Source of the DNA: a virus | Lineage: Duplodnaviria; Caudoviricetes | Strand: one strand, 5' to 3' | DNA length: 40,534 bases | Virus record (IMG/VR): IMGVR_UViG_3300014208_001117 | Location: 1 to 40,534 of that record | In this document: piece after piece, positions 1,293 to 39,646 of the stretch | Position numbering within the stretch: the stretch's first letter is position 1 | Layout of the letters: every line of letters starts with the position of its first letter | Translations under genes and position numbers: made by a program | Notes under the pieces: model-generated | Seen by the model: only the letters and a program-made list of their open reading frames with translations | Databases searched by the model: none | What the model was told of the DNA's origin: nothing

Positions 1293-1317
1293 GCAAAAAT
1301 TAAAAAGTTTTTTAGAG

Positions 1318-1343
1318 ACTCCGCATTATTTGCGGAGTTTTTT
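1318..1343 (+). terminator. Phage-supplied intrinsic terminator after gap
   Basis: actccgca-ttatt-tgcggagt hairpin followed by a T run. Confidence 0.85.
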
Positions 1344-1347
1344 GTTG

Positions 1348-1401
1348 CGTACTGAACCTTTGTACGACCCAGAGGTTCAGTACGGAGCGCGAAATTGCGC
1401 T
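1348..1401 (+). other. Tandem RNA hairpins at the prophage left end
   Basis: 15-bp stem 1348-1362/1370-1384 with loop tacgacc, then agcgcg-aaat-tgcgct at 1386-1401. Confidence 0.7.
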
Positions 1402-1453
1402 TGGTCGAAAATTTAATAACCAAAAAAAAGCACCATCATGACGAGATTATGTT

Positions 1454-1669
1454 TTGGCACTGATTGTGACGATGATCATTGCCGGTGCTATGACGATGAT
1501 AAACCCATACAACGAAGTCATCAAATCGGAACTTTATCCGGAACTCAAAATGAGAATCCGGTCAAAGAGAGAAGAGAAAATATGGAATAATACTTTTATC
1601 ATTTTTTTGATTCTCTACGTATCGTATTTCGCCGGTCAATACTTGTCGTACTTGACCACAACTTATTAA
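1454..1669 (+). CDS. Small membrane protein, hypothetical (start uncertain)
   Basis: ORF with a C-terminal hydrophobic helix; a competing 50-codon Cys-rich ORF starts at 1438 in another frame. Confidence 0.5.
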   Translation: MALIVTMIIAGAMTMINPYNEVIKSELYPELKMRIRSKREEKIWNNTFIIFLILYVSYFAGQYLSYLTTTY

Positions 1670-1755
1670 GGCTTGTCTTCCCTGAACCGTTCTTGTTCGT
1701 TGCACCCCTGACAAGCCGGTGCAATCCGCAAGGAGACGAACAATAGCGGTTCAGG
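1670..1755 (+). ncRNA. Candidate cis-acting structured RNA (three-way junction with pseudoknot)
   Basis: Stem 1681-1700/1736-1755, inner hairpins tgcacc/ggtgca and tcc-GCAA-gga; loop gacaagcc (1710-1717) complements ggcttgtc (1670-1677). Confidence 0.65.
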
Positions 1756-1769
1756 CAATAAATTTAAAA

Positions 1770-2720
1770 ATGAAAATAGTAAACACTCTTGACCCCTCGC
1801 TTCGCCCGGCAATCGTGATGTTGCTCGCGGGAAACGGAGGCGTCGGAAAAACCACGTTCGGAGCCACTGCTCCAAAACCCATACTCGCCGACTGCGAGAA
1901 CGGGACAAAATATCTCGGACTTCGCGGCATCAAGATGGACATCGCAAAAATAGAAAACTGGGCGGATGCAAAAGAATTTCTTGAGTTTGTAAAAGGGGGA
2001 GATTACGAAACCGTTATCATTGATCCCCTCGATGAAATGATGAGCAAGCTCAAAGGAGCAATCATCGCATCCAATGATCCGAAACTCGTCCAGCGAGACG
2101 GAAGCCCGACGATGGCGGGATGGGGGAAAATGAAACAGGACTTGAAGGACTATCTCAAAGTTCTCCGCGACTGCGGGAAGCACGTCCTCATCATCGCTCA
2201 CGTTGAAGAAAAAGATAATGACGGCGTTCTTGTGAAGCGCCCAAAGGTGGAAACCAAACTCTCGGCCGACATCGTGGACATGGTGGACATCGTCGGATAC
2301 ATGGAAGTCGTTGAGTCCGATGGAATCACCAAACGCATCATCCGGGTGGAAGAGAAAAACGATCGGTATGTCGCCAAGGATCGCACCGGACAGCTCGGCT
2401 CTGTCGTTGAACCGGACTTCGCGAAGATTATCAATGCCTGCCAAGGAACTGAAAAATATTCATGGAGCAGGAGCGAAGAAGTGAAACGCGGCGTTAAAAA
2501 TTCTCTGGCTCCGATTGAGACTGGAGAGAAAAAAGAGGAGACGAAGAAAGCTCCGGAGAAGAAATCGGCGAAAAAGGAAAATGTTTTTGCAGACGAGATC
2601 GAAAAGGTTTTGGATGAAGATCTCGCTCCGATCAAGGAAGACAAAGTGGCCGATAAAAAAGATGCTTTAAAAGAAAAACTTTCCAAAGCGAAATCGCGAG
2701 TGAAAGTATCACTGGAATAA
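1770..2720 (+). CDS. Sak4-like phage recombination ATPase (AAA_24 type)
   Basis: Walker A GNGGVGKTT, ILADCENG, VIIDPLD, LIIAH and AKDR motifs; ATG at 1770 preferred over the ORF-track start, which lies inside an RNA structure. Confidence 0.85.
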   Translation: MKIVNTLDPSLRPAIVMLLAGNGGVGKTTFGATAPKPILADCENGTKYLGLRGIKMDIAKIENWADAKEFLEFVKGGDYETVIIDPLDEMMSKLKGAIIASNDPKLVQRDGSPTMAGWGKMKQDLKDYLKVLRDCGKHVLIIAHVEEKDNDGVLVKRPKVETKLSADIVDMVDIVGYMEVVESDGITKRIIRVEEKNDRYVAKDRTGQLGSVVEPDFAKIINACQGTEKYSWSRSEEVKRGVKNSLAPIETGEKKEETKKAPEKKSAKKENVFADEIEKVLDEDLAPIKEDKVADKKDALKEKLSKAKSRVKVSLE

Positions 2721-2722
2721 TC

Positions 2723-3571
2723 ATGTCAAAAATCGCCAACAAAAGAACGGAAGTCCTCTACAACGGAGATGTTGAGATTGACTTCTATCCGGACAGCCAC
2801 CGGTACAAAATGGCTGGAGAGAAGACCTACCTTATCAGCGCGACCGCCTGCACAGGGATCATAGATAAAAGCATGTTTCTCATTCCTTGGGCGGTCCGGC
2901 TTGTGGGATCGTTCATCACGGAATACTTGGAGCGATCCAAAGAGAATCGCTTCACGAAAGAGGAATTGCGACCGGTTATTGAGGAAGCGCTAATCCAACA
3001 TACGGTCAAAAAGGAAACGGCGGCCGACATTGGAACCGCGATCCATAATTGGTGCGAGCAATTCGCAAAGGCGCAAATGAACGGTACGGAATTTCCGGAA
3101 ATCCCGGAAGAAATTGAGGGAATGAAGCCGGAGGATGTGGGCAAGGTTCATAACGGCATCAATGGGTTTCTTGATTGGTTCAATTCCCGCGATGTGAAGT
3201 TTGAACATTCCGAACGGCTGATCTATTCGCGGATCCATGGCTTCGTCGGGATCACCGACTTCATCGCCCGGATCAACGGATTCCGCGTTCTCGGAGACTT
3301 CAAGAGTTCCAAAGGGGTATACGATGAGCAATTCTTCCAACTCGCCGGATACATGGGGGCGGTGGAAGAAGAGGAAGAGTATTCCAATGAGAACGCCGAG
3401 AAGTTTGAGAACGGTTTGATCCTTCATTTTGACAAAGAGACGGGCGCATTCGGACATTACGAAATGTCGCGCGAGGAGTACGAGAAGAATTACGAAACGT
3501 TTCTTCACGCCTACGGCATCAAGAAGCGTTTGAAAGAATTGGCGGCGAAGAAAGGATACAGCCGCGAATAG
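2723..3571 (+). CDS. PD-(D/E)XK (Cas4/RecB-like) exonuclease
   Basis: AADIGTAIH, E...GITD...LGDFKSS and QLAGY motifs; recombination-module context. Confidence 0.85.
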   Translation: MSKIANKRTEVLYNGDVEIDFYPDSHRYKMAGEKTYLISATACTGIIDKSMFLIPWAVRLVGSFITEYLERSKENRFTKEELRPVIEEALIQHTVKKETAADIGTAIHNWCEQFAKAQMNGTEFPEIPEEIEGMKPEDVGKVHNGINGFLDWFNSRDVKFEHSERLIYSRIHGFVGITDFIARINGFRVLGDFKSSKGVYDEQFFQLAGYMGAVEEEEEYSNENAEKFENGLILHFDKETGAFGHYEMSREEYEKNYETFLHAYGIKKRLKELAAKKGYSRE

Positions 3572-3616
3572 AAAGAAAATAGAAAATTAAAAAAAATCGC
3601 TAAATTTATAAAAAAC

Positions 3617-4447
3617 ATGGTAGATATAAAAAAATTGGCTGAAATAAGCGGCGGGAACGAATACAGCGAGCGCACCAGCATAATGGCCGATGAACTCAAA
3701 CTTACAAACGGGCGCTTCGTTCAAAAACTTATTTCGCAAGGGAAAGGTGCCGACGATCGGTATGAGGAAGTTACGCTTGATGATCCCCTCAAGGTAATTA
3801 TCCTGAAGATCCGCAGACAGATGGTGAAGTACAAAGAAAAAATTACCCGCGATGAAAAGCCGGAGATTGCTTACAAGAGCGCAGAGTACGATAGCCCGAC
3901 CGAACCGGTGATGGTGTACAGTGCAACTTCTTCAGGAGCGAAAAGCATGACGGAAAAGGAGGCGAAAAAATCAACGACATTGGCGGGGGTAAAAGTAAAT
4001 GTAATTCTCTACATGCTTCTCGCTAAAACCGGAGATCTCGTGAGGCTCACCGTTACCGGATCATCGCTTTACATGGGGGACGACGAAACGGCGGAGCGTA
4101 AAGTTCTCCGTCTCTACAACTACCTTCAGACATTCAAGAAAGACGAATACATCTTCGCTTTCAGGACGAATATCGGAGTTACGCAAGAATCATTCGCTAA
4201 AGATGACGGATCAGAAAACGAGTATTTCGCGATGTCGTTTGAGAAATCGGACGCTCTCAATGAGAAACAGCTTGACGCTGTCGGAGATCAGATGATGGAG
4301 CTTGCGGACCATCTCGTGAAGCAGGACGAAAAGGTCGCAAAGAATGGAATAAGGTTCTATACCCCCGGCGGGACGAATACTTTATCAGCAGATGGGCGGG
4401 CAGAGTATCCGAAGGATGAGATTAACTTGGATGATATTCCTTTCTAA
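3617..4447 (+). CDS. Putative single-stranded DNA-binding protein
   Basis: Ends in the SSB-type acidic tail LDDIPF; adjacent to the Sak4-like ATPase and nuclease. Confidence 0.65.
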   Translation: MVDIKKLAEISGGNEYSERTSIMADELKLTNGRFVQKLISQGKGADDRYEEVTLDDPLKVIILKIRRQMVKYKEKITRDEKPEIAYKSAEYDSPTEPVMVYSATSSGAKSMTEKEAKKSTTLAGVKVNVILYMLLAKTGDLVRLTVTGSSLYMGDDETAERKVLRLYNYLQTFKKDEYIFAFRTNIGVTQESFAKDDGSENEYFAMSFEKSDALNEKQLDAVGDQMMELADHLVKQDEKVAKNGIRFYTPGGTNTLSADGRAEYPKDEINLDDIPF

Positions 4448-4451
4448 ATTT

Positions 4452-4706
4452 ATGTCTGAAAAATTGGATTTGATGGACGATGATTGCGACATTGAAGGTT
4501 TTCCTAAAGATTTCCTCCATGAAGACAACGACCGCGATTACTGGACGAGGAAGGCGATGAGGCAGTTCGGGGGAGGATTCGTCCAGCAACTCGCCCATCT
4601 CGCCGAACAAGCAGATTCCAACAATCTCGCCAGAATTAAAGCCGCATGGCCGGAATATTGGAAGCAGTACGAGGAGATGGGGCGATCTCTTAAAGATAAA
4701 AAATAA
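4452..4706 (+). CDS. Hypothetical phage protein
   Basis: ATG 4 nt after the upstream stop; operon packing. Confidence 0.7.
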   Translation: MSEKLDLMDDDCDIEGFPKDFLHEDNDRDYWTRKAMRQFGGGFVQQLAHLAEQADSNNLARIKAAWPEYWKQYEEMGRSLKDKK

Positions 4707-4749
4707 AAAAGTAGAAATTTATAAACCAAGTTAATTAAAATCGTTCTTT

Positions 4750-5226
4750 ATGACAAAAAAAACAAAACAGCCGATGCTTGACGAGGAACCGAAATTCGGT
4801 CTCGTTGAAGCAAGTTTGGAGCTTTTGGCTCTTTCCCTTAAAAACGGATTGTGGAATTTGAAGCTCGGCGTGAATACTGCGCTTGATTCCTCGTATCACC
4901 AGTACAGCTCTTCCATAGAGTTTGATGAACGTCCTTTTGAAGCGGAAATTGAGGAATACGAAAACGAATTGAAGGGGTCGCTTTTTGAGGACGATCCGGG
5001 GCAAAAGCAACAGATTCGGCGGAACATTGACAAGACAAAGGCACGGATGGAGGAGCGACGCAAGGCGTGCGAGAAGATAGAATTTTCCGGAACGGTGAGC
5101 GAGGTGAAATACATGGACGGCAAGACAGTCCTCGCACTCAACATTCCGGACGCTGTGGTCGAACCGATCAGTCGGCAGAGGTTCAATCTCAAGCATTACA
5201 AGATCGCGCTTGTTCCGGTTTTCTAA
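4750..5226 (+). CDS. Hypothetical phage protein
   Basis: 158-aa ORF in the + strand operon. Confidence 0.75.
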   Translation: MTKKTKQPMLDEEPKFGLVEASLELLALSLKNGLWNLKLGVNTALDSSYHQYSSSIEFDERPFEAEIEEYENELKGSLFEDDPGQKQQIRRNIDKTKARMEERRKACEKIEFSGTVSEVKYMDGKTVLALNIPDAVVEPISRQRFNLKHYKIALVPVF

Positions 5227-5253
5227 CACGATATGCCCTCATTATAAAAATTT

Positions 5254-5961
5254 ATGGAAAATGGATGGGTCAAAATCAATCGGTCACTCAAAAAAAAGGG
5301 TTACTACACCCAAAGCGAATATGTGCACCTTTGGGTCCATCTTCTTCTTAGCGCGAATCATGAGGAATCTGAATTTATGTGGAACGGGAAAATTCTGAAA
5401 ATCAAGCGCGGGCAGTTCATCACAGGAAGGCTCAAGTTAGCCAAGGAAACGGGAATCAATCAACATAAGGTAGATAGAATTCTAAACCTCTTCAAAAGTG
5501 AGCAACAGATTGAGCAACAAACTACATCAAAATATCGGCTAATTACGGTCATAAATTACGATAGATATCAGCAATATGAGCAACAGATTGAGCAACAAGT
5601 GAGCAACAAGTGCGCAACAAGTGAGCAACAAGTGAGCACAAACAATAAATATAAAAAGGAAAAGAAGGATAAGAAGGAAAAGAAAGAGAAAAAAAGTTTT
5701 GAACTTCCGGAATGGCTTGATGTTAAGATTTGGAACGAGTGGATGATTTACCGGAAGGAAAAAAAATCACCACTCACGGATTCAACGATTACGAAACAAA
5801 TTGCATTGCTCGAGGAAAATAAATCGTATTACAAAGAAATTATTAATCAAAGCATTACAAACGGGTGGATGGGACTTTTCCCGCTCAATGGAAAAATTAC
5901 AAGACAACCTAAAGCCGAAACCGGAAAATATACCGGTATTGGCACCAAAGTCAATGTATGA
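5254..5961 (+). CDS. Phage replication initiator (replisome organiser, lambda O-like)
   Basis: N-terminal GWVKINR...LLLSANH...RGQFITG winged-helix pattern, internal iterons, C-terminal W..W..YRK...NGW.GLF domain; overlaps the DnaC-like gene. Confidence 0.85.
   Translation: MENGWVKINRSLKKKGYYTQSEYVHLWVHLLLSANHEESEFMWNGKILKIKRGQFITGRLKLAKETGINQHKVDRILNLFKSEQQIEQQTTSKYRLITVINYDRYQQYEQQIEQQVSNKCATSEQQVSTNNKYKKEKKDKKEKKEKKSFELPEWLDVKIWNEWMIYRKEKKSPLTDSTITKQIALLEENKSYYKEIINQSITNGWMGLFPLNGKITRQPKAETGKYTGIGTKVNV
5499..5700 (+). repeat. Iteron array / putative phage origin
   Basis: Eight TGAGCAACA-like units (5499, 5511, 5577, 5589, 5600, 5611, 5622, 5633) at 11-12 bp period, followed by an A-rich tract. 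Confidence 0.8.
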
Positions 5962-6485
5962 TGCAAATTCCAAAAAGATTTGAAAACGTGAAGTTTGAGG
6001 ATATTCCGGCGAGCGTCCGGAAGAATCTGGAAACCATCAAACAAAGCCGGAGGGGGTTATATCTCCACGGCGGATGCGGTACAGGAAAAACGCATGTCGC
6101 GTATGCTATCGCCAAGCATTTCGGGTTTGAAAAAAACTTCAATACAAAAATCTTCGGCGTCGCTGAAATATTACGTTTGATTCGTTCGGATTTTGATCGG
6201 ATAAATAGTTACAAGGAAGAGGAAAACACGAATTTCTACACGATTATAAATTACCGCGGACTTCTCATCCTTGACGATCTCGGAGCCGAGAAAATTACCG
6301 AATGGGCGGAGGAAACGCTGTATGCGATTGTGAACAAGAGATACGAGGAAATGTTGCCGACCATCTTCACAAGCAATCTCAATCTTGAGGAATTGGCGGG
6401 GAGACTTGGGGATCGTATCGTGTCAAGGATTGCCGGGAGTTGCGATGTTGTGGAACTTCAAGGGAAAGATAAAAGATTATCATGA
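5958..6485 (+). CDS. DnaC/IstB-like helicase loader ATPase
   Basis: GGCGTGKTH, LLILDDLGAE, PTIFTSN, GDRIVSRI, GKDKR. Confidence 0.92.
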   Translation: MMQIPKRFENVKFEDIPASVRKNLETIKQSRRGLYLHGGCGTGKTHVAYAIAKHFGFEKNFNTKIFGVAEILRLIRSDFDRINSYKEEENTNFYTIINYRGLLILDDLGAEKITEWAEETLYAIVNKRYEEMLPTIFTSNLNLEELAGRLGDRIVSRIAGSCDVVELQGKDKRLS

Positions 6486-7111
6486 AACACAAAAATTTTT
6501 CCAATCAAAAAAAAATAATTCTTGACCTTTGCGGCGGTACTGGTTCATGGAGCAAGCCGTATAAAGACGCAGGATACGATGTTCGCGTCATAACTCTCCC
6601 AGAGTTTGATATACACGATAAAAAAGTTCAATACATGTGCGTTGCTCTTAAACCATATGGCATTCTTGCTGCCCCCCCCTGCACGATGTTTTCAATGGCT
6701 CGTACTATCGCAAAAACTCCACGAGATATGGAAGGAGCAATGAAAACAGTTATCGCATGTTTGGAAATTATTTGGCGTTGTCAGTATGAAGGAAAGCGTT
6801 TGCAATTCTGGGCATTGGAAAACCCAAAAGCAAGGTTGCGTTGGTTTCTAGGAGTTCCGCAGATGTCGATGAATCCGTTTGAGTTCGGCGACAGGGTGAG
6901 AAAACCGACGGATATTTGGGGAAACTATAATCTTCCAAAGAAAAATCCGGTTGAACTTACGCCAGAAGAAAAAACAAAGTTCGGAGTACACCAAGAGAAA
7001 TTGCCAAAATTGCCGGAAGGATACAAATTCGGAGACAGCAACAAACGCGCGGCGAGAAGGGCGATTACACCTCCGATGTGGGCTATGGCGTTTTATAAAG
7101 CAAATAAGTAA
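6482..7111 (+). CDS. DNA (cytosine-5) methyltransferase, short orphan type
   Basis: Motif I LDLCGGTG, motif IV APPC, motif VI ENP. Confidence 0.8.
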   Translation: MKHKNFSNQKKIILDLCGGTGSWSKPYKDAGYDVRVITLPEFDIHDKKVQYMCVALKPYGILAAPPCTMFSMARTIAKTPRDMEGAMKTVIACLEIIWRCQYEGKRLQFWALENPKARLRWFLGVPQMSMNPFEFGDRVRKPTDIWGNYNLPKKNPVELTPEEKTKFGVHQEKLPKLPEGYKFGDSNKRAARRAITPPMWAMAFYKANK

Positions 7112-7116
7112 AAATT

Positions 7117-7485
7117 ATGCAAGAAGCAATTAAACGAGCGATAGAGGGAGGGTGGAAACCAAAACAACTCAATGACCGTTCTCTTCAAGGATACCAGTTT
7201 CATCGTTACCGTAAAAATTACTCAACTTGGTACAAGAAATACAGCAAAGATAACGAGCCAACGTACTGCTATCTTCCCCATGAAGTTTCACTTTTAGACC
7301 CCGAATTTTGGAAGTGTTTAGGAAAGAGTGAGGGGTGGGAGAGTGGTTGTGGATTACCGCGAAGTGAGTTGTGCGCATGTCGCTCATGTTGGATGGCGTG
7401 GAAATATTACTGGCTCGACTTCATCGACCACCTCGCCCAAGGAGGAACGATAGACGAATTTTTTGAGAAGATATTAAAACCATAA
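7117..7485 (+). CDS. Hypothetical phage protein
   Basis: ORF in operon. Confidence 0.7.
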   Translation: MQEAIKRAIEGGWKPKQLNDRSLQGYQFHRYRKNYSTWYKKYSKDNEPTYCYLPHEVSLLDPEFWKCLGKSEGWESGCGLPRSELCACRSCWMAWKYYWLDFIDHLAQGGTIDEFFEKILKP

Positions 7486-7489
7486 AACC

Positions 7490-7852
7490 ATGAATAAATT
7501 AGTACTAAATTTAGAAGCCTCACAAGCAATAGCCAAGTTTCTTGAAGAGAATACGACGGAGAGTTATTTTTATCACGCTTTATGGGAAACCAACGAATGG
7601 ATAATTTCCGAAAAAAAAATTATTGACAGGACGGACGAGATTGTTTCTCGCGGCGGAAACAAAAAAGCAATAATAGTTCCCGCCTTCACCTTCTCCGAAT
7701 TCATAACGAATGTTTTGCCGAAGATAACTCAAAAGAAATACGGACTTGGTATTTGGAATGCAAGTATTGCGAACGATTGTTTTAAAGACCTTTTACGGGG
7801 TGGAGGTATGGTGGGAGTTAGTAGGAGGATTATCAAGTTATTGGAAGAATAA
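7490..7852 (+). CDS. Hypothetical phage protein
   Basis: ORF in operon. Confidence 0.7.
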   Translation: MNKLVLNLEASQAIAKFLEENTTESYFYHALWETNEWIISEKKIIDRTDEIVSRGGNKKAIIVPAFTFSEFITNVLPKITQKKYGLGIWNASIANDCFKDLLRGGGMVGVSRRIIKLLEE

Positions 7853-7859
7853 CACGTAA

Positions 7860-8243
7860 ATGGCAAAAAAATTCACAATCAAATGCGAGCTCTGCGATCT
7901 GAACACCTACATGAATGCGGAGCGGAGAAATCGTTTTCTTGCGGCGAAAATAAAAAAGGAGGAAACGGAAAGGGTCGCGTGGTCGGCTCGCGCGGCACGC
8001 TTACTTTCCCTCTTTGGGGATGAGTATCCGGTCCGGATAAAGTATCGGTGGTATTCCAAAGACATGCGAAAGGATACCGACAATGTTGCGTTTGCAAAGA
8101 AGTTCGTGAACGACGGGCTGGTCATGGCGGGGATACTGGAAAACGATTCGCGCAAATTTGTTTCCGGGTTTTCCGATGAGTTCTTTGTTGATAAAGAAAA
8201 CCCGAGAGTGGAGGTCGAAATTATCAGCGTTTTAACCACATAG
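7860..8243 (+). CDS. rusA: RusA-like Holliday junction resolvase
   Basis: D-x-D-N...K...DGL...G.L.ND motif and C-terminal NPRVEVEI. Confidence 0.8.
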   Translation: MAKKFTIKCELCDLNTYMNAERRNRFLAAKIKKEETERVAWSARAARLLSLFGDEYPVRIKYRWYSKDMRKDTDNVAFAKKFVNDGLVMAGILENDSRKFVSGFSDEFFVDKENPRVEVEIISVLTT

Positions 8244-22565: not shown

Positions 22566-24431
22566 ATGGCCTTGGAAGACAATTTAGTCGGATACTGGAA
22601 ACTTGATGAGGCGAGTGGAAATGCGGCTGATTCCACCGCTAGTGGTTTTACTTTGACGAATGTTGGAACGACCACTTTTACCACTGGAAAAATAGGCAAT
22701 GCTTGTGATTTTGGTTCTGCTAACTCAACAAAAAGATTCTATATTAACAATGATTTAGGCATACGGGGCGGAACAATGACAATCGGGGGCTGGTTCAAAA
22801 TCACGACCTCTCCTGCAACTGGTGTAACTTATACGTTATTTAAACAAAAAGATGCGACAAATAAAGTCGGCTTCGCTCTTTTTTATCAAAATAGCGGGGG
22901 CACACTACAATTGAGGATGGAACGGTGCAAAGAAGGAATTGCCTGCGTTAACACAACTTACAACGCCCCACTATCTGTAGACACTTGGTATTTTATTGCA
23001 ATAACATACGACGGAACAAATCTTCACCTATATCTTGACGACGGTAAGGTTGCTGATTCTGCCTCCGCCACGGGTAATGGTTCTGCGTCATCGGCGGCTT
23101 TTATTATTGGCTCAATTGCGACCGACGGCGGAGTTGATTTTTCTGGTCTTGCTGACGAAATTTTTGCTTTTACGATAAATCTTTCTGATGCAGAACTTTC
23201 AACTCTCTACAACTCAGGGACAGGAATGACCTTCAACGGGACGATTTTTGTTGAACCATCTACCCCGTCCGCTTCCACTTCTCCGAGCTTATCACCAAGT
23301 GCGAGTTTAAGTCCCAGTGCTTCTTCCTCTCCTTCACCCTCACCTTCGTCTTCCGTCAGTCCCTCCCTCTCTCCCTCCGCTTCCGCTTCCCCCTCTCTCT
23401 CACCAAGCACAAGTGTATCACCGAGTTTATCGCCCTCCGCTTCTTTAAGTCCTTCCTCTTCCGAATCTCCGAGCTTGTCGCCAAGTACCTCCGAAAGCCC
23501 TTCTCTCTCGCCCTCTACAAGCGAAAGCCCGTCATTAAGTCCGAGTGCGAGTTTGAGTCCAAGCTCTTCGGCTTCGCCATCGCTTAGTCCTTCTACGTCT
23601 GAATCACCATCACTCTCACCGTCTACTTCGCAATCTCCGTCACTTAGTCCGTCCGCGAGTTTGTCGCCGTCCTCTTCGCAAAGTCCGTCGCTTTCGCCGT
23701 CTTCCTCTTTAAGCCCGTCACCGAGTGCAGGCAGTTCAAGTCTTTCGCCGAGTTCGTCGGAAAGTCCTTCACTTTCTCCTTCAACTTCTCAATCGCCAAG
23801 TTTGAGTCCAAGCGCGTCACAGAGTCCGAGCTTATCTCCAAGCGCAAGTCTTTCACCATCGCCCAGCGAATCGCCAAGTTTGTCACCAAGTGCAAGTCTA
23901 AGCCCCTCAAGCTCTGAATCGCCCTCTCTTTCCCCATCAGCGAGTCTTTCGCCGTCCGCTTCGGAGTCGCCGTCTTTGTCGCCATCCGCAAGTTTAAGTC
24001 CGAGCTCTTCGGAATCGCCAAGTCTTTCGCCAAGCGCGAGTTTGAGTCCGTCATCTTCGGAGAGTCCATCCCTGTCACCGAGCGCGAGTTTATCACCTTC
24101 AAGTTCTGAATCACCCTCACTCAGTCCTTCCGCTTCGCTTTCGCCGAGTTCATCCATTTCTCCATCGCTCTCTCCATCGGCAAGTCTTTCTCCTTCATCT
24201 TCCGAATCTCCTTCTCTCAGCCCTTCTAGCTCGCAAAGTCCCAGTTTATCCCCATCGGCTTCACTTTCTCCGTCAAGTTCCATATCTCCCTCTTTGTCGC
24301 CTTCAAGCTCAATGTCACCATCGCCCTCTCCCCCATGGCACCCTGTCAATCGAAACAGTACCGGAAGTTTTACCCGGACGGCGCGCAACAGTTCGGGAAC
24401 TTGGACAAAAACATCTAGAAATAGCATGTAA
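22566..24431 (+). CDS. LamG/ConA-like lectin domain protein with long Ser/Pro-rich stalk
   Basis: LVGYWKLDE...W.FIAITYDG...LYLD...FSGLADE...LYN, then about 360 aa of SPSLSPSASL-type repeats. Confidence 0.85.
   Translation: MALEDNLVGYWKLDEASGNAADSTASGFTLTNVGTTTFTTGKIGNACDFGSANSTKRFYINNDLGIRGGTMTIGGWFKITTSPATGVTYTLFKQKDATNKVGFALFYQNSGGTLQLRMERCKEGIACVNTTYNAPLSVDTWYFIAITYDGTNLHLYLDDGKVADSASATGNGSASSAAFIIGSIATDGGVDFSGLADEIFAFTINLSDAELSTLYNSGTGMTFNGTIFVEPSTPSASTSPSLSPSASLSPSASSSPSPSPSSSVSPSLSPSASASPSLSPSTSVSPSLSPSASLSPSSSESPSLSPSTSESPSLSPSTSESPSLSPSASLSPSSSASPSLSPSTSESPSLSPSTSQSPSLSPSASLSPSSSQSPSLSPSSSLSPSPSAGSSSLSPSSSESPSLSPSTSQSPSLSPSASQSPSLSPSASLSPSPSESPSLSPSASLSPSSSESPSLSPSASLSPSASESPSLSPSASLSPSSSESPSLSPSASLSPSSSESPSLSPSASLSPSSSESPSLSPSASLSPSSSISPSLSPSASLSPSSSESPSLSPSSSQSPSLSPSASLSPSSSISPSLSPSSSMSPSPSPPWHPVNRNSTGSFTRTARNSSGTWTKTSRNSM
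23254..24335 (+). repeat. Coding tandem repeat (SPSLSPSASLSPSSSE-like units)
   Basis: Amino-acid repeat is strong while synonymous codons are scrambled. Confidence 0.9.
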
Positions 24432-37872: not shown

Positions 37873-37899
37873 TTGACTTTTTTGCAAAGGTGGTATAAT
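37873..37899 (+). promoter_or_regulatory. Integrase promoter
   Basis: Extended -10 TGgTATAAT (37891-37899); TTGACT at 37873 gives only a 15-nt spacer. Confidence 0.65.
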
Positions 37900-37919
37900 G
37901 TGCAAAACATAATTTAATA

Positions 37920-38131
37920 TTTACTCACTGAAGTCCGCGAGGACTTGTACGACCAGTGAAGCATTTACACCACATATTCTTTTGGTGTAAACTGTATATG
38001 TGCCAGAAATGGCACGTATAGGGTCTCTGATCAGAGACTTTCTATGCCCTTTACTCCTGCCGGTTCGCCGGATCGTGGAGGCAAAGGAACAGCACATGCC
38101 TCACTCGGTCGTACGGGTGGGGCCTCTGTGC
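37920..38131 (+). ncRNA. Candidate structured 5' leader of the integrase mRNA
   Basis: Six consecutive hairpins and a long-range gtacgac/gtcgtac pairing. Confidence 0.65.
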
Positions 38132-38133
38132 AT

Positions 38134-39216
38134 ATGAAAACAAGTCAAGCAATTGAAGAATTTAAAAACTGGCGAGGGTTCAAGGTATCAGGTCAAACCG
38201 TTGTGCGTTATGATAACGTGCTCCGAATTTTTTGTTTGTGCATGGGAGACCCGGATATTGAGCGAATTCAAATTCAGCATGTTCTCCAGTATATGCAAGG
38301 TATGGAAAAACTCGGATGGAAAAGAAACGGAATTACTATCGTGGCACTCGCCCTACGAAAATTTTTTGAGTTTTACAATTTGCGAGGATACAAATGTCTC
38401 AATGAATATCTTATCCCATTACCTCGTAAAGAGTTTAATCTGCCGCGTGTCGCCAACGAGAAAGATTATAAAAAACTGCTCAAGGCAATTCCGAGAGACA
38501 GAGATCCGAACAACATTCGCAATCGTGCGCTCATCACTCTGATATGGGATACGTGGGCACGGAGCGGGGAAATAATTTCACTCAACGAAGATCACTTGGT
38601 TTTCCAAAAAGACTTGTCCGGGACGGCTATCATAAAGACCGAGAAATCAAGAGGGAGAAGACCCATCCGGGAAATTTTCTGGACAAAAGAGACTGGCCGA
38701 AATCTTAAAAAATGGCTGAATAAAAAACATGAATTGCAAAAGGATCATATCTATGAAGACAGTGATGCCGTCTTCGTATCCATTCGGAAATGCGGCGCTT
38801 ATGACTCTCGCGGAAAACGAATGACGAACCGCGGCGTATGCGAGGTTCTTCGGACAATATCTAATCGTGCAGATTTACCGACTGTGTTTAACGCGCATTC
38901 CGCCCGGCATTACGGTGGGAGAGAAATCATAAAACAAGGAGGAAGCAATGCAGACGTTTCAAATATTTTAGGTCATTCTAGTTTGGATAGTTCAATGATC
39001 TATACGATGATGTGGGGAGAAGAATTGCGCGAGAGGTATGATCAATTCCGCAACGGGAAAAAGGTTGATCTCAAACATCTTACAGGGGAACAGGCACTCA
39101 ACGCTTTTCTTTCGTTTATACAAAAGGGAGGAATACAGAGAAGTCCGTTTATCGGACACATCGGACGAAAAACAGAAATAAGAACAAAAGGAGGAGGGAA
39201 GTTTACAAAATTTTAG
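38134..39216 (+). CDS. int: Tyrosine recombinase / integrase
   Basis: TWARSGE (R), KTEK (K), HSARH (HxxR), LGH, IY; ATG 38134 preferred because 38044-38133 is hairpin-rich. Confidence 0.93.
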   Translation: MKTSQAIEEFKNWRGFKVSGQTVVRYDNVLRIFCLCMGDPDIERIQIQHVLQYMQGMEKLGWKRNGITIVALALRKFFEFYNLRGYKCLNEYLIPLPRKEFNLPRVANEKDYKKLLKAIPRDRDPNNIRNRALITLIWDTWARSGEIISLNEDHLVFQKDLSGTAIIKTEKSRGRRPIREIFWTKETGRNLKKWLNKKHELQKDHIYEDSDAVFVSIRKCGAYDSRGKRMTNRGVCEVLRTISNRADLPTVFNAHSARHYGGREIIKQGGSNADVSNILGHSSLDSSMIYTMMWGEELRERYDQFRNGKKVDLKHLTGEQALNAFLSFIQKGGIQRSPFIGHIGRKTEIRTKGGGKFTKF

Positions 39217-39263
39217 TTATTCACACTCCGAGACTTGCATTGTTGGCAAGTTAAGAGTATAGT
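39217..39263 (+). promoter_or_regulatory. Promoter P1 with DnaA-type box and operator
   Basis: TTATTCACA (39217-39225), TTGCAT-17-TATAGT, inverted repeat ACTTGC-N7-GCAAGT. Confidence 0.7.
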
Positions 39264-39269
39264 ATTGAT

Positions 39270-39458
39270 ATGCCACTACCAACACCTAATATAGCAAAAA
39301 TTAAAGAAGTAAAGAGCTTGAGAGAAAAAAGACTGTCATACAGGCAGATTGCAAAGCTCTTAGACAGCGATGTAAAAACCGTTTATAGATGGGATTCCTA
39401 TGACGTTGGCAAGTTATCCACAGGCAAACTTGCACAAGTTGGCAAGCGTAATGTATAA
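39270..39458 (+). CDS. Small helix-turn-helix protein (repressor/Cro or excisionase), probably leaderless
   Basis: LREKRLSYRQIAKLLDSDVKTVYRW; ATG 6 nt after the -10 box. Confidence 0.8.
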   Translation: MPLPTPNIAKIKEVKSLREKRLSYRQIAKLLDSDVKTVYRWDSYDVGKLSTGKLAQVGKRNV

Positions 39459-39459
39459 T
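39414..39459 (+). promoter_or_regulatory. Promoter P2 pointing at the att site
   Basis: TTATCCACA (39414-39422), TTGCAC-18-TATAAT, GTTGGCAAG in the spacer. Confidence 0.7.
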
Positions 39460-39485: not shown

Positions 39486-39573
39486 GACTTCCTCTCGCTT
39501 CTTGAGCATCGGTATGATAAAATTGGTTATGAAAACCATTTTACGGATATTCAAGAAGCGCGAGGGCGGAGTC
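39486..39573 (+). other. Long imperfect RNA hairpin before attR
   Basis: ctcgcttcttga/tcaagaagcgcgag and taaaattggtt/aaccatttta arms. Confidence 0.7.
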
Positions 39574-39586
39574 TCTAAAAACTTTA

Positions 39587-39646
39587 CATGGTATGATAAC
39601 GAAATGGGGTATACGTCGGCGCTCGTGGAGCATGTGGCGAAGATGG
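39587..39646 (+). repeat. attR; displaced native gap 3' end (continues to TAA at 39665)
   Basis: Encodes WYDNEMGYTSALVEHVAKMASFITH*. Confidence 0.95.

Follow-up and report, generated by a model that had tools for sequence, protein, structure and literature searches.

In Tn916, the left-end terminator T1 insulates the genes of the element from host promoters, and a right-end promoter together with the RNA antiterminator canT comes to lie upstream of T1 only after excision (PMC11658703). canT is about 450 nt long, acts processively, is active on heterologous terminators and probably works through RNA polymerase (PMC11658703). In mycobacteriophage BPs, attP lies inside the repressor gene, and recombination removes a degradation tag (PMC3694055). 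The locus considered here belongs to a viral record of 40,534 nt (IMG/VR record IMGVR_UViG_3300014208_001117; the whole stretch is hereafter called the window), which consists of a host gap gene, a 38.4-kb prophage, a repeat of the gap 3′ end and then host genes. The comparison with the described systems involves the following features:

255–1292, + strand: host gap gene (GAPDH; Pfam PF02800/PF00044), its last codons supplied by the phage, as the duplicated 3′ end indicates
1216–1275, + strand: attL core, 60 nt, with one mismatch to the attR core (1228/39599)
1304–1324, + strand: b*, the putative target of the antiterminator segment, comprising the terminator 5′ arm plus 13 nt upstream (complementarity, fold, covariation)
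1314–1343, + strand: predicted intrinsic terminator shielding the early genes from the gap transcript (fold; P = 1.0 in attL context)
1438–8243, + strand: early recombination and replication genes (Sak4-like, exonuclease, DnaD-like, DnaC-like, RusA-like; PHROGs)
38134–39216, + strand: Xer-like tyrosine integrase (profile and homologue alignment; the longest ORF starts at 38044, and homologues align from about residue 30)
39430–39459, + strand: candidate promoter P2, with a third operator copy at 39438 (score 10/12; operator word)
39566–39585, + strand: b, the candidate antiterminator segment (complementarity, fold)
39587–39646, + strand: attR core, 60 nt, identical to 1216–1275 save for the mismatch

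As in Tn916, a predicted terminator lies at the left end, downstream of a host promoter, at 28 attL sites including that of the window, and P2 and b precede the attR core and are joined to the terminator by excision. The joined attP junction is carried by four complete circular virus records that contain neither gap nor secA (G028, G056, G058 and G061). Unlike canT, compared here by its description, the segment in question is only 15–30 nt long, matches the terminator of its own element by complementarity and covaries with it; unlike Tn916, the elements are tailed phages and islands whose hosts are Patescibacteria and whose insertion site, in gap or secA, is fixed. This covariation argues for terminator-specific pairing over canT-like processive action. 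The original prediction had named no described case of such logic, but the T1/canT pair of Tn916 already constitutes excision-gated RNA antitermination (PMC11658703); what differs here is the proposed base-pairing, terminator-specific action. As in BPs, whose integrase also seems to lack an arm-binding domain, the recombination state would set a small switch of few genes, whereas here attP lies within a predicted RNA structure and the helix–turn–helix (HTH) gene is intact and co-directional (PMC3694055).

The terminator and antiterminator helices are mutually exclusive in the folds, with compensatory changes among relatives, as in RNA attenuators. In attenuators of the trp type and of plasmid pT181, one arm of the terminator is captured by RNA from further upstream; here, site-specific recombination would set the switch instead of ribosome stalling, a ligand or an antisense RNA. 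The P4 CI RNA and the P1/P7 C4 antisense RNA act in phage RNA circuits whose target word is present twice, and an 8-nt word (J) likewise occurs twice in this prophage, once each in the int and early leaders, though unlike in those circuits there was no Rfam match and no separate antisense RNA was identified. A base-pairing antiterminator split by an att site was not found in the literature covered, which was main text with few subscription papers among it, nor does such a motif appear in main-text passages of PMC5737381.

The reverse complement of b equals positions 1304–1324 except for one extra T, giving 20 nt with one bulge, of which 16 nt are exact (39566–39581/1309–1324), and b ends one base short of the attR core. 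This exact match, re-computed as originally predicted, is the longest between the 200-nt phage ends, the maximum in 3000 dinucleotide shuffles being 14 nt. An unrelated 17-nt inverted pair is also present in the window, and length alone is therefore not unique; position and conservation, not length, carry the case. The predicted hairpin has an extendable stem (1318–1325/1331–1338; −14.9 to −17.2 kcal/mol) and a T run up to 1343, lies 20 nt past the gap stop codon, and agrees with the claim that the left copy spans the 5′ arm of a terminator; a simple terminator scan did not list it. In every attL transcript folded, the terminator formed with P = 0.99–1.0. In the simulated attP transcript from P2, in which 89 nt separate the two arms (about 90 had been predicted), the b/b* helix (duplex energy −27.4 kcal/mol) displaced the terminator, with a terminator P of about 0.01 at most and 4.4 kcal/mol in favour of the alternative fold. 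Since the crossover probably falls past the first codons of the core, attP would inherit the phage-derived core allele (39599), and refolding with that allele left the outcome unchanged. The difference between attP and attL folds on which the original prediction depended was thus obtained.

The prophage encodes Sak4-like, exonuclease, helicase-loader, terminase, portal, capsid, tail-fibre and endolysin proteins, followed by the tyrosine integrase and a 62-aa HTH ORF. All annotated genes lie on the + strand, the phage genes keeping this single orientation over 38 kb, and a sequence scan found no promoter-like site on the + strand within 1300–4711. The host is likely a member of the Patescibacteria, a group of ultra-small bacteria, because the closest integrase relatives sit mostly in Patescibacteria genomes. 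The window also contains a 54-nt perfect palindrome ahead of the gap promoter (61–114), iteron-like 11-nt tandem repeats within the replication initiator gene (5589–5643), a long Ser/Pro-rich repeat in a virion protein (23265–24332) and a 27-nt inverted repeat (85%; 39655–39681/40132–40158) around a host four-helix-bundle (IVP/Avd-like) gene.

Scans with the integrase and its alignment gathered 192 loci, of which 65 had the gap 3′ end after the integrase, 52 had the secA 3′ end, 65 had neither and 10 had no scripted forward integrase match. The attL sites were sought in 26 genomes and two virus records for gap and in 25 genomes for secA. A terminator was detected in 46 of 107 distinct elements, namely 28 integrated pairs (window included) and 18 contiguous junctions, the remaining 61 being mostly attR loci missing their attL. 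The permutation test omits L176 (a wrong pair) and the host-terminator controls L048 and L179; the gap ends taken for L130 and L131 were wrong picks and not used, and the 65 loci with neither gap nor secA lie outside all pairing statistics. In the integrase tree, the gap and secA targets correspond to separate clades, and the pairing is present in both. Some relatives are phage-like and others resemble cargo islands; a search with the window capsid protein gave no match in 10 related genomes or records and was uninformative.

Several further observations concern these relatives. The sister integrase clade at the secA 3′ end comprises 52 loci (e.g., L163, L186 and L023), and further loci use other sites. 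In L015 and L016, which have neither gap nor secA, pairing of the b/b* type was seen by eye, as was a dif-like core in L015. In L036, L047, L128, L131, L132 and L183 the gap or secA end is present in several tandem copies, which suggests repeated insertion at the same site, and in L001 (4635–4740) a provirus attR is followed by the left end of another element with a non-matching terminator. A reverse transcriptase gene lies upstream of the integrase in L135 (1587–2651).

Among the gap and secA relatives, right-end sequences differ, yet each fits the terminator of its own element, with poor fits at L172/L219 (no match), L014, L007 and L136. Ranked among 46 partners, the right end of the element itself came first in 15 of the 28 integrated pairs and within the top three in 20, the corresponding counts at contiguous junctions being 2 and 9 of 18. 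Over 30 non-redundant clusters, the mean duplex energy was −24.9 kcal/mol, compared to −15.8 ± 0.63 kcal/mol after permutation (0/100,000 permutations); the covariation in related prophages that the original prediction had proposed looking for was thus found. The signal appeared separately in the arm alone, in the 25 nt preceding the arm and in the post-terminator segment (each 0/20,000), and since the match extends upstream of the arm, b is more than a duplicate of the 3′ arm. No signal came from a downstream control 100–130 nt beyond (8073/20,000) and a weak one from an upstream control segment (core; 50/20,000), while two attR loci followed by host terminators showed no match (ranks 18 and 41 of 46). 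Inspection by eye of the L176 junction suggests pairing of the right-end segment with the terminator 3′ arm in place of the 5′ arm.

When RNAs were folded only as far as the U run, the terminator was lost in 8/46 cognate RNAs, 3/368 chimeras and 0/28 attL RNAs. The terminator thus prevails at equilibrium in 38/46 elements, and an antiterminator model therefore needs kinetic control. Natural attenuators likewise depend on kinetic control. With the 3′ arm not yet made, the 5′ arm was captured in 45/46 cognate RNAs, compared to 48/138 chimeric and 9/28 host-fused RNAs. With 35 nt more of RNA, the terminator was lost in 14/30 cognate, 3/90 chimeric and 0/19 host-fused RNAs because, as seen in the folds, the 3′ arm gains a downstream partner.

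Upstream of the attR core lie a candidate regulatory gene and further putative promoters:

39235–39263, + strand: candidate promoter P1, with a candidate operator at 39242 (operator word)
39270–39458, + strand: 62-aa HTH protein, candidate repressor (weak HTH matches; operator word in common with L171)
39405–39422, + strand: second operator copy with an adjoining DnaA-box-like 9-mer at 39414–39422 (word search)
39515–39531, + strand: putative extended −10 promoter P3 and a leaderless ATG in frame with the gap end (by eye)

The 9-nt word GTTGGCAAG occurs three times in the window, at P1, beside the DnaA-box-like site and at P2, and the L171 HTH protein, 50% identical to that of the window, has the same operator word. 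Element-specific words of at least 6 nt were common to both promoter spacers in 15/39 loci compared to 139/1482 non-cognate comparisons, related loci not being independent. The HTH protein is thus likely a repressor or other regulator of P2. The 9-mer just upstream of P2 is one that we take to be DnaA-box-like from the consensus, and such a 9-mer is seen just upstream of P2 in many relatives too. The int, HTH and early genes are co-directional, with no divergent rep/cro promoters of the BPs kind, and the HTH ORF ends at 39458, 128 nt ahead of the core, so that attP is not within the candidate repressor gene. The original prediction saw no divergent cI/cro pair or S24 repressor and proposed the antiterminator as a possible lysis/lysogeny switch; a candidate repressor has now been found in the HTH ORF, with its operator word at P1 and P2, and given this candidate the antiterminator is more likely one lock than the whole switch.

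An extended −10 lies at most 90 nt from the core in 44/54 gap loci, with an in-frame ATG in 42/54, and P3 likely restores the expression of host genes beyond attR. P3 follows b in most relatives and precedes it in the window, where the P3 transcript also folds the antiterminator; translation across b may block pairing on this transcript.

Considering these results, we propose the following scenario, in which b probably serves as a cis-acting, terminator-specific RNA antiterminator able to reach its target only on the circular attP form. In the integrated state, the strong gap transcript would stop at the phage-supplied terminator, the promoter-less replication operon would stay silent, and P3 would re-supply the host genes past attR. 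In the excised or incoming state, the transcript from P2, predicted from a motif score of 10/12 at essentially the position originally given (39431–39459), would bring b across the att core; b would capture the 5′ arm of the terminator before the 3′ arm is synthesized, and RNA polymerase would then enter the early genes. The small HTH protein likely gates P2 and a separate RNA switch in the int leader likely gates excision, and induction would therefore be excision-first. Of the original interpretation, which is partly supported, the core idea that a right-end segment would be able to pair with the left-end terminator only once excision has occurred has strong support from folding and from covariation in relatives.

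Simple antitermination leaves unaccounted for some conserved pairings past the terminator (a′ and d), which involve two further features:

1395–1409, + strand: a′, the complement of the 3′ arm of the right-end hairpin, then a conserved GGTCG motif (motif count in elements)
39491–39565, + strand: a–a* hairpin, stacked on the predicted antiterminator helix, its position kept in many relatives (repeat search, folds)

A hairpin precedes b in many elements, and its 3′ arm complements a segment beyond the terminator. These parts, together with b–b*, could belong to a larger RNA that acts past the terminator as a processive antiterminator like canT or put, or as a processing signal, the block at the first terminator being only its first step. 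That the post-terminator segment covaries with the right end, that GGTCG occurs after the terminator in 30/46 elements compared to 6.6% in shuffles, that the annotated phage genes share one strand over 38 kb, and that canT is processive (PMC11658703) all fit such an RNA. However, b tracks its own terminator, which would be needless for a polymerase-binding RNA, and no Rfam family reached its gathering score, either in the window or in the five loci searched, the E-value matches being weak and chance-like. We consider a larger RNA of this kind an unlikely explanation of the helix.

It is also conceivable, at a low probability, that P2 RNA transcribed at attR reaches the gap transcript at attL in trans; derepression of P2, and not excision, would then open the early genes. 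The duplex energy in the window would allow this, and b is single-stranded beside a stable hairpin. However, the duplexes of many relatives are weaker and interrupted, better suited to pairing in cis, and in every case b sits immediately before the core, on the strand which becomes continuous with the terminator upon excision.

The repeat might instead act as DNA, either as inverted sites for Int or an accessory factor, which the original prediction gave as its alternative, or in a folded single-stranded attP. In attP of the CTXphi type, folded single-stranded DNA builds the duplex bound by the recombinase. The arms of the repeat flank the core in attP and the integrase is Xer-like, both of which fit a DNA role. 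Wobble pairs showed no strand bias: G·U was not above A·C (31 versus 33; 23 versus 29 in a second test) and duplex energies of the plus and minus strands were equal, so wobble does not separate RNA from single-stranded DNA. However, the profile alignment of the integrase to XerA, XerC-like and XerD proteins starts at positions 6–16, that is, from the N terminus and with no N-terminal arm-binding domain, the arms differ between integrases 74%–87% identical, and well-matched elements have b anywhere between 2 and about 75 nt away from the core. Int of the lambda type has an arm-binding domain and conserved arm sequence and spacing, neither of which is seen here. Moreover, the target is always the 5′ arm of the terminator, and in folds with DNA parameters the core stays within the loop enclosed by the b/b* helix, not in the stem as the CTXphi comparison would imply. 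A DNA-level role, arm sites included, is thus disfavoured and appears improbable. Chance or a common terminator consensus, suggested by the likeness of terminator arms and by the 17-nt pair elsewhere in the window, is refuted for practical purposes by the permutation result, which was obtained among relatives having the same consensus.

Cis-acting, terminator-specific pairing by b therefore remains the preferred reading, and a second RNA pairing was seen in the int leader, with the following features:

1348–1384, + strand: 15-bp hairpin with the J word in its loop (fold, motif positions)
37891–38136, + strand: putative extended −10 promoter (by eye) and structured int leader (fold, motif positions; analogous covarying leader in relatives)

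A conserved multi-stem RNA lies upstream of int in the window (37905–38136), in L003 (4775–5003) and in 25 further loci (alignment A3), and the pattern is present in 73/235 loci; Rfam gave no match for this int-leader RNA. In relatives, the final hairpin ahead of the start codon has its loop and 5′ arm paired to a segment lying further upstream, with compensatory changes in 8/18 pairs across 26 sequences (0/500 shuffles; slid controls 0–1), although the structure was derived from the same alignment and the shuffle ignores kinship. The window leader has a sequence of its own in the same layout: the J word at 37947–37954 can pair, in the fold, with the loop of the last pre-start hairpin (38107–38114), and it recurs at 1362–1369 in the early-leader hairpin. 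The pairing word or the whole motif is seen again in the early leader of L195, L197, L200, L201, L204, L206, L209, L210 and L215. The recurrence of the J word suggests that read-through RNA feeds back on int. A tentative extension, which we regard as possible but doubtful, is that interlocking RNA helices mainly run the life cycle of these Patescibacteria phages and islands, from the int-leader switch through excision and antitermination across attP to feedback of the read-through RNA on int.

Very little has been described of lysogeny control in temperate Patescibacteria phages, and a term search of the text available from two papers on CPR phages (PMC12911398 and PMC13059738) did not return the word "terminator". 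If the tentative extension is true, these elements would use an excision-first RNA circuit with a single small protein regulator. The module could be tested with any sigma-70 polymerase, host culture being unneeded, and the many natural cognate pairs would provide transcription switches that are gated by recombination and possibly orthogonal to one another. With such a module, insertion downstream of a strongly expressed housekeeping gene such as gap or secA could leave an element silent until a 20-nt RNA segment switches it on, without an antiterminator protein.
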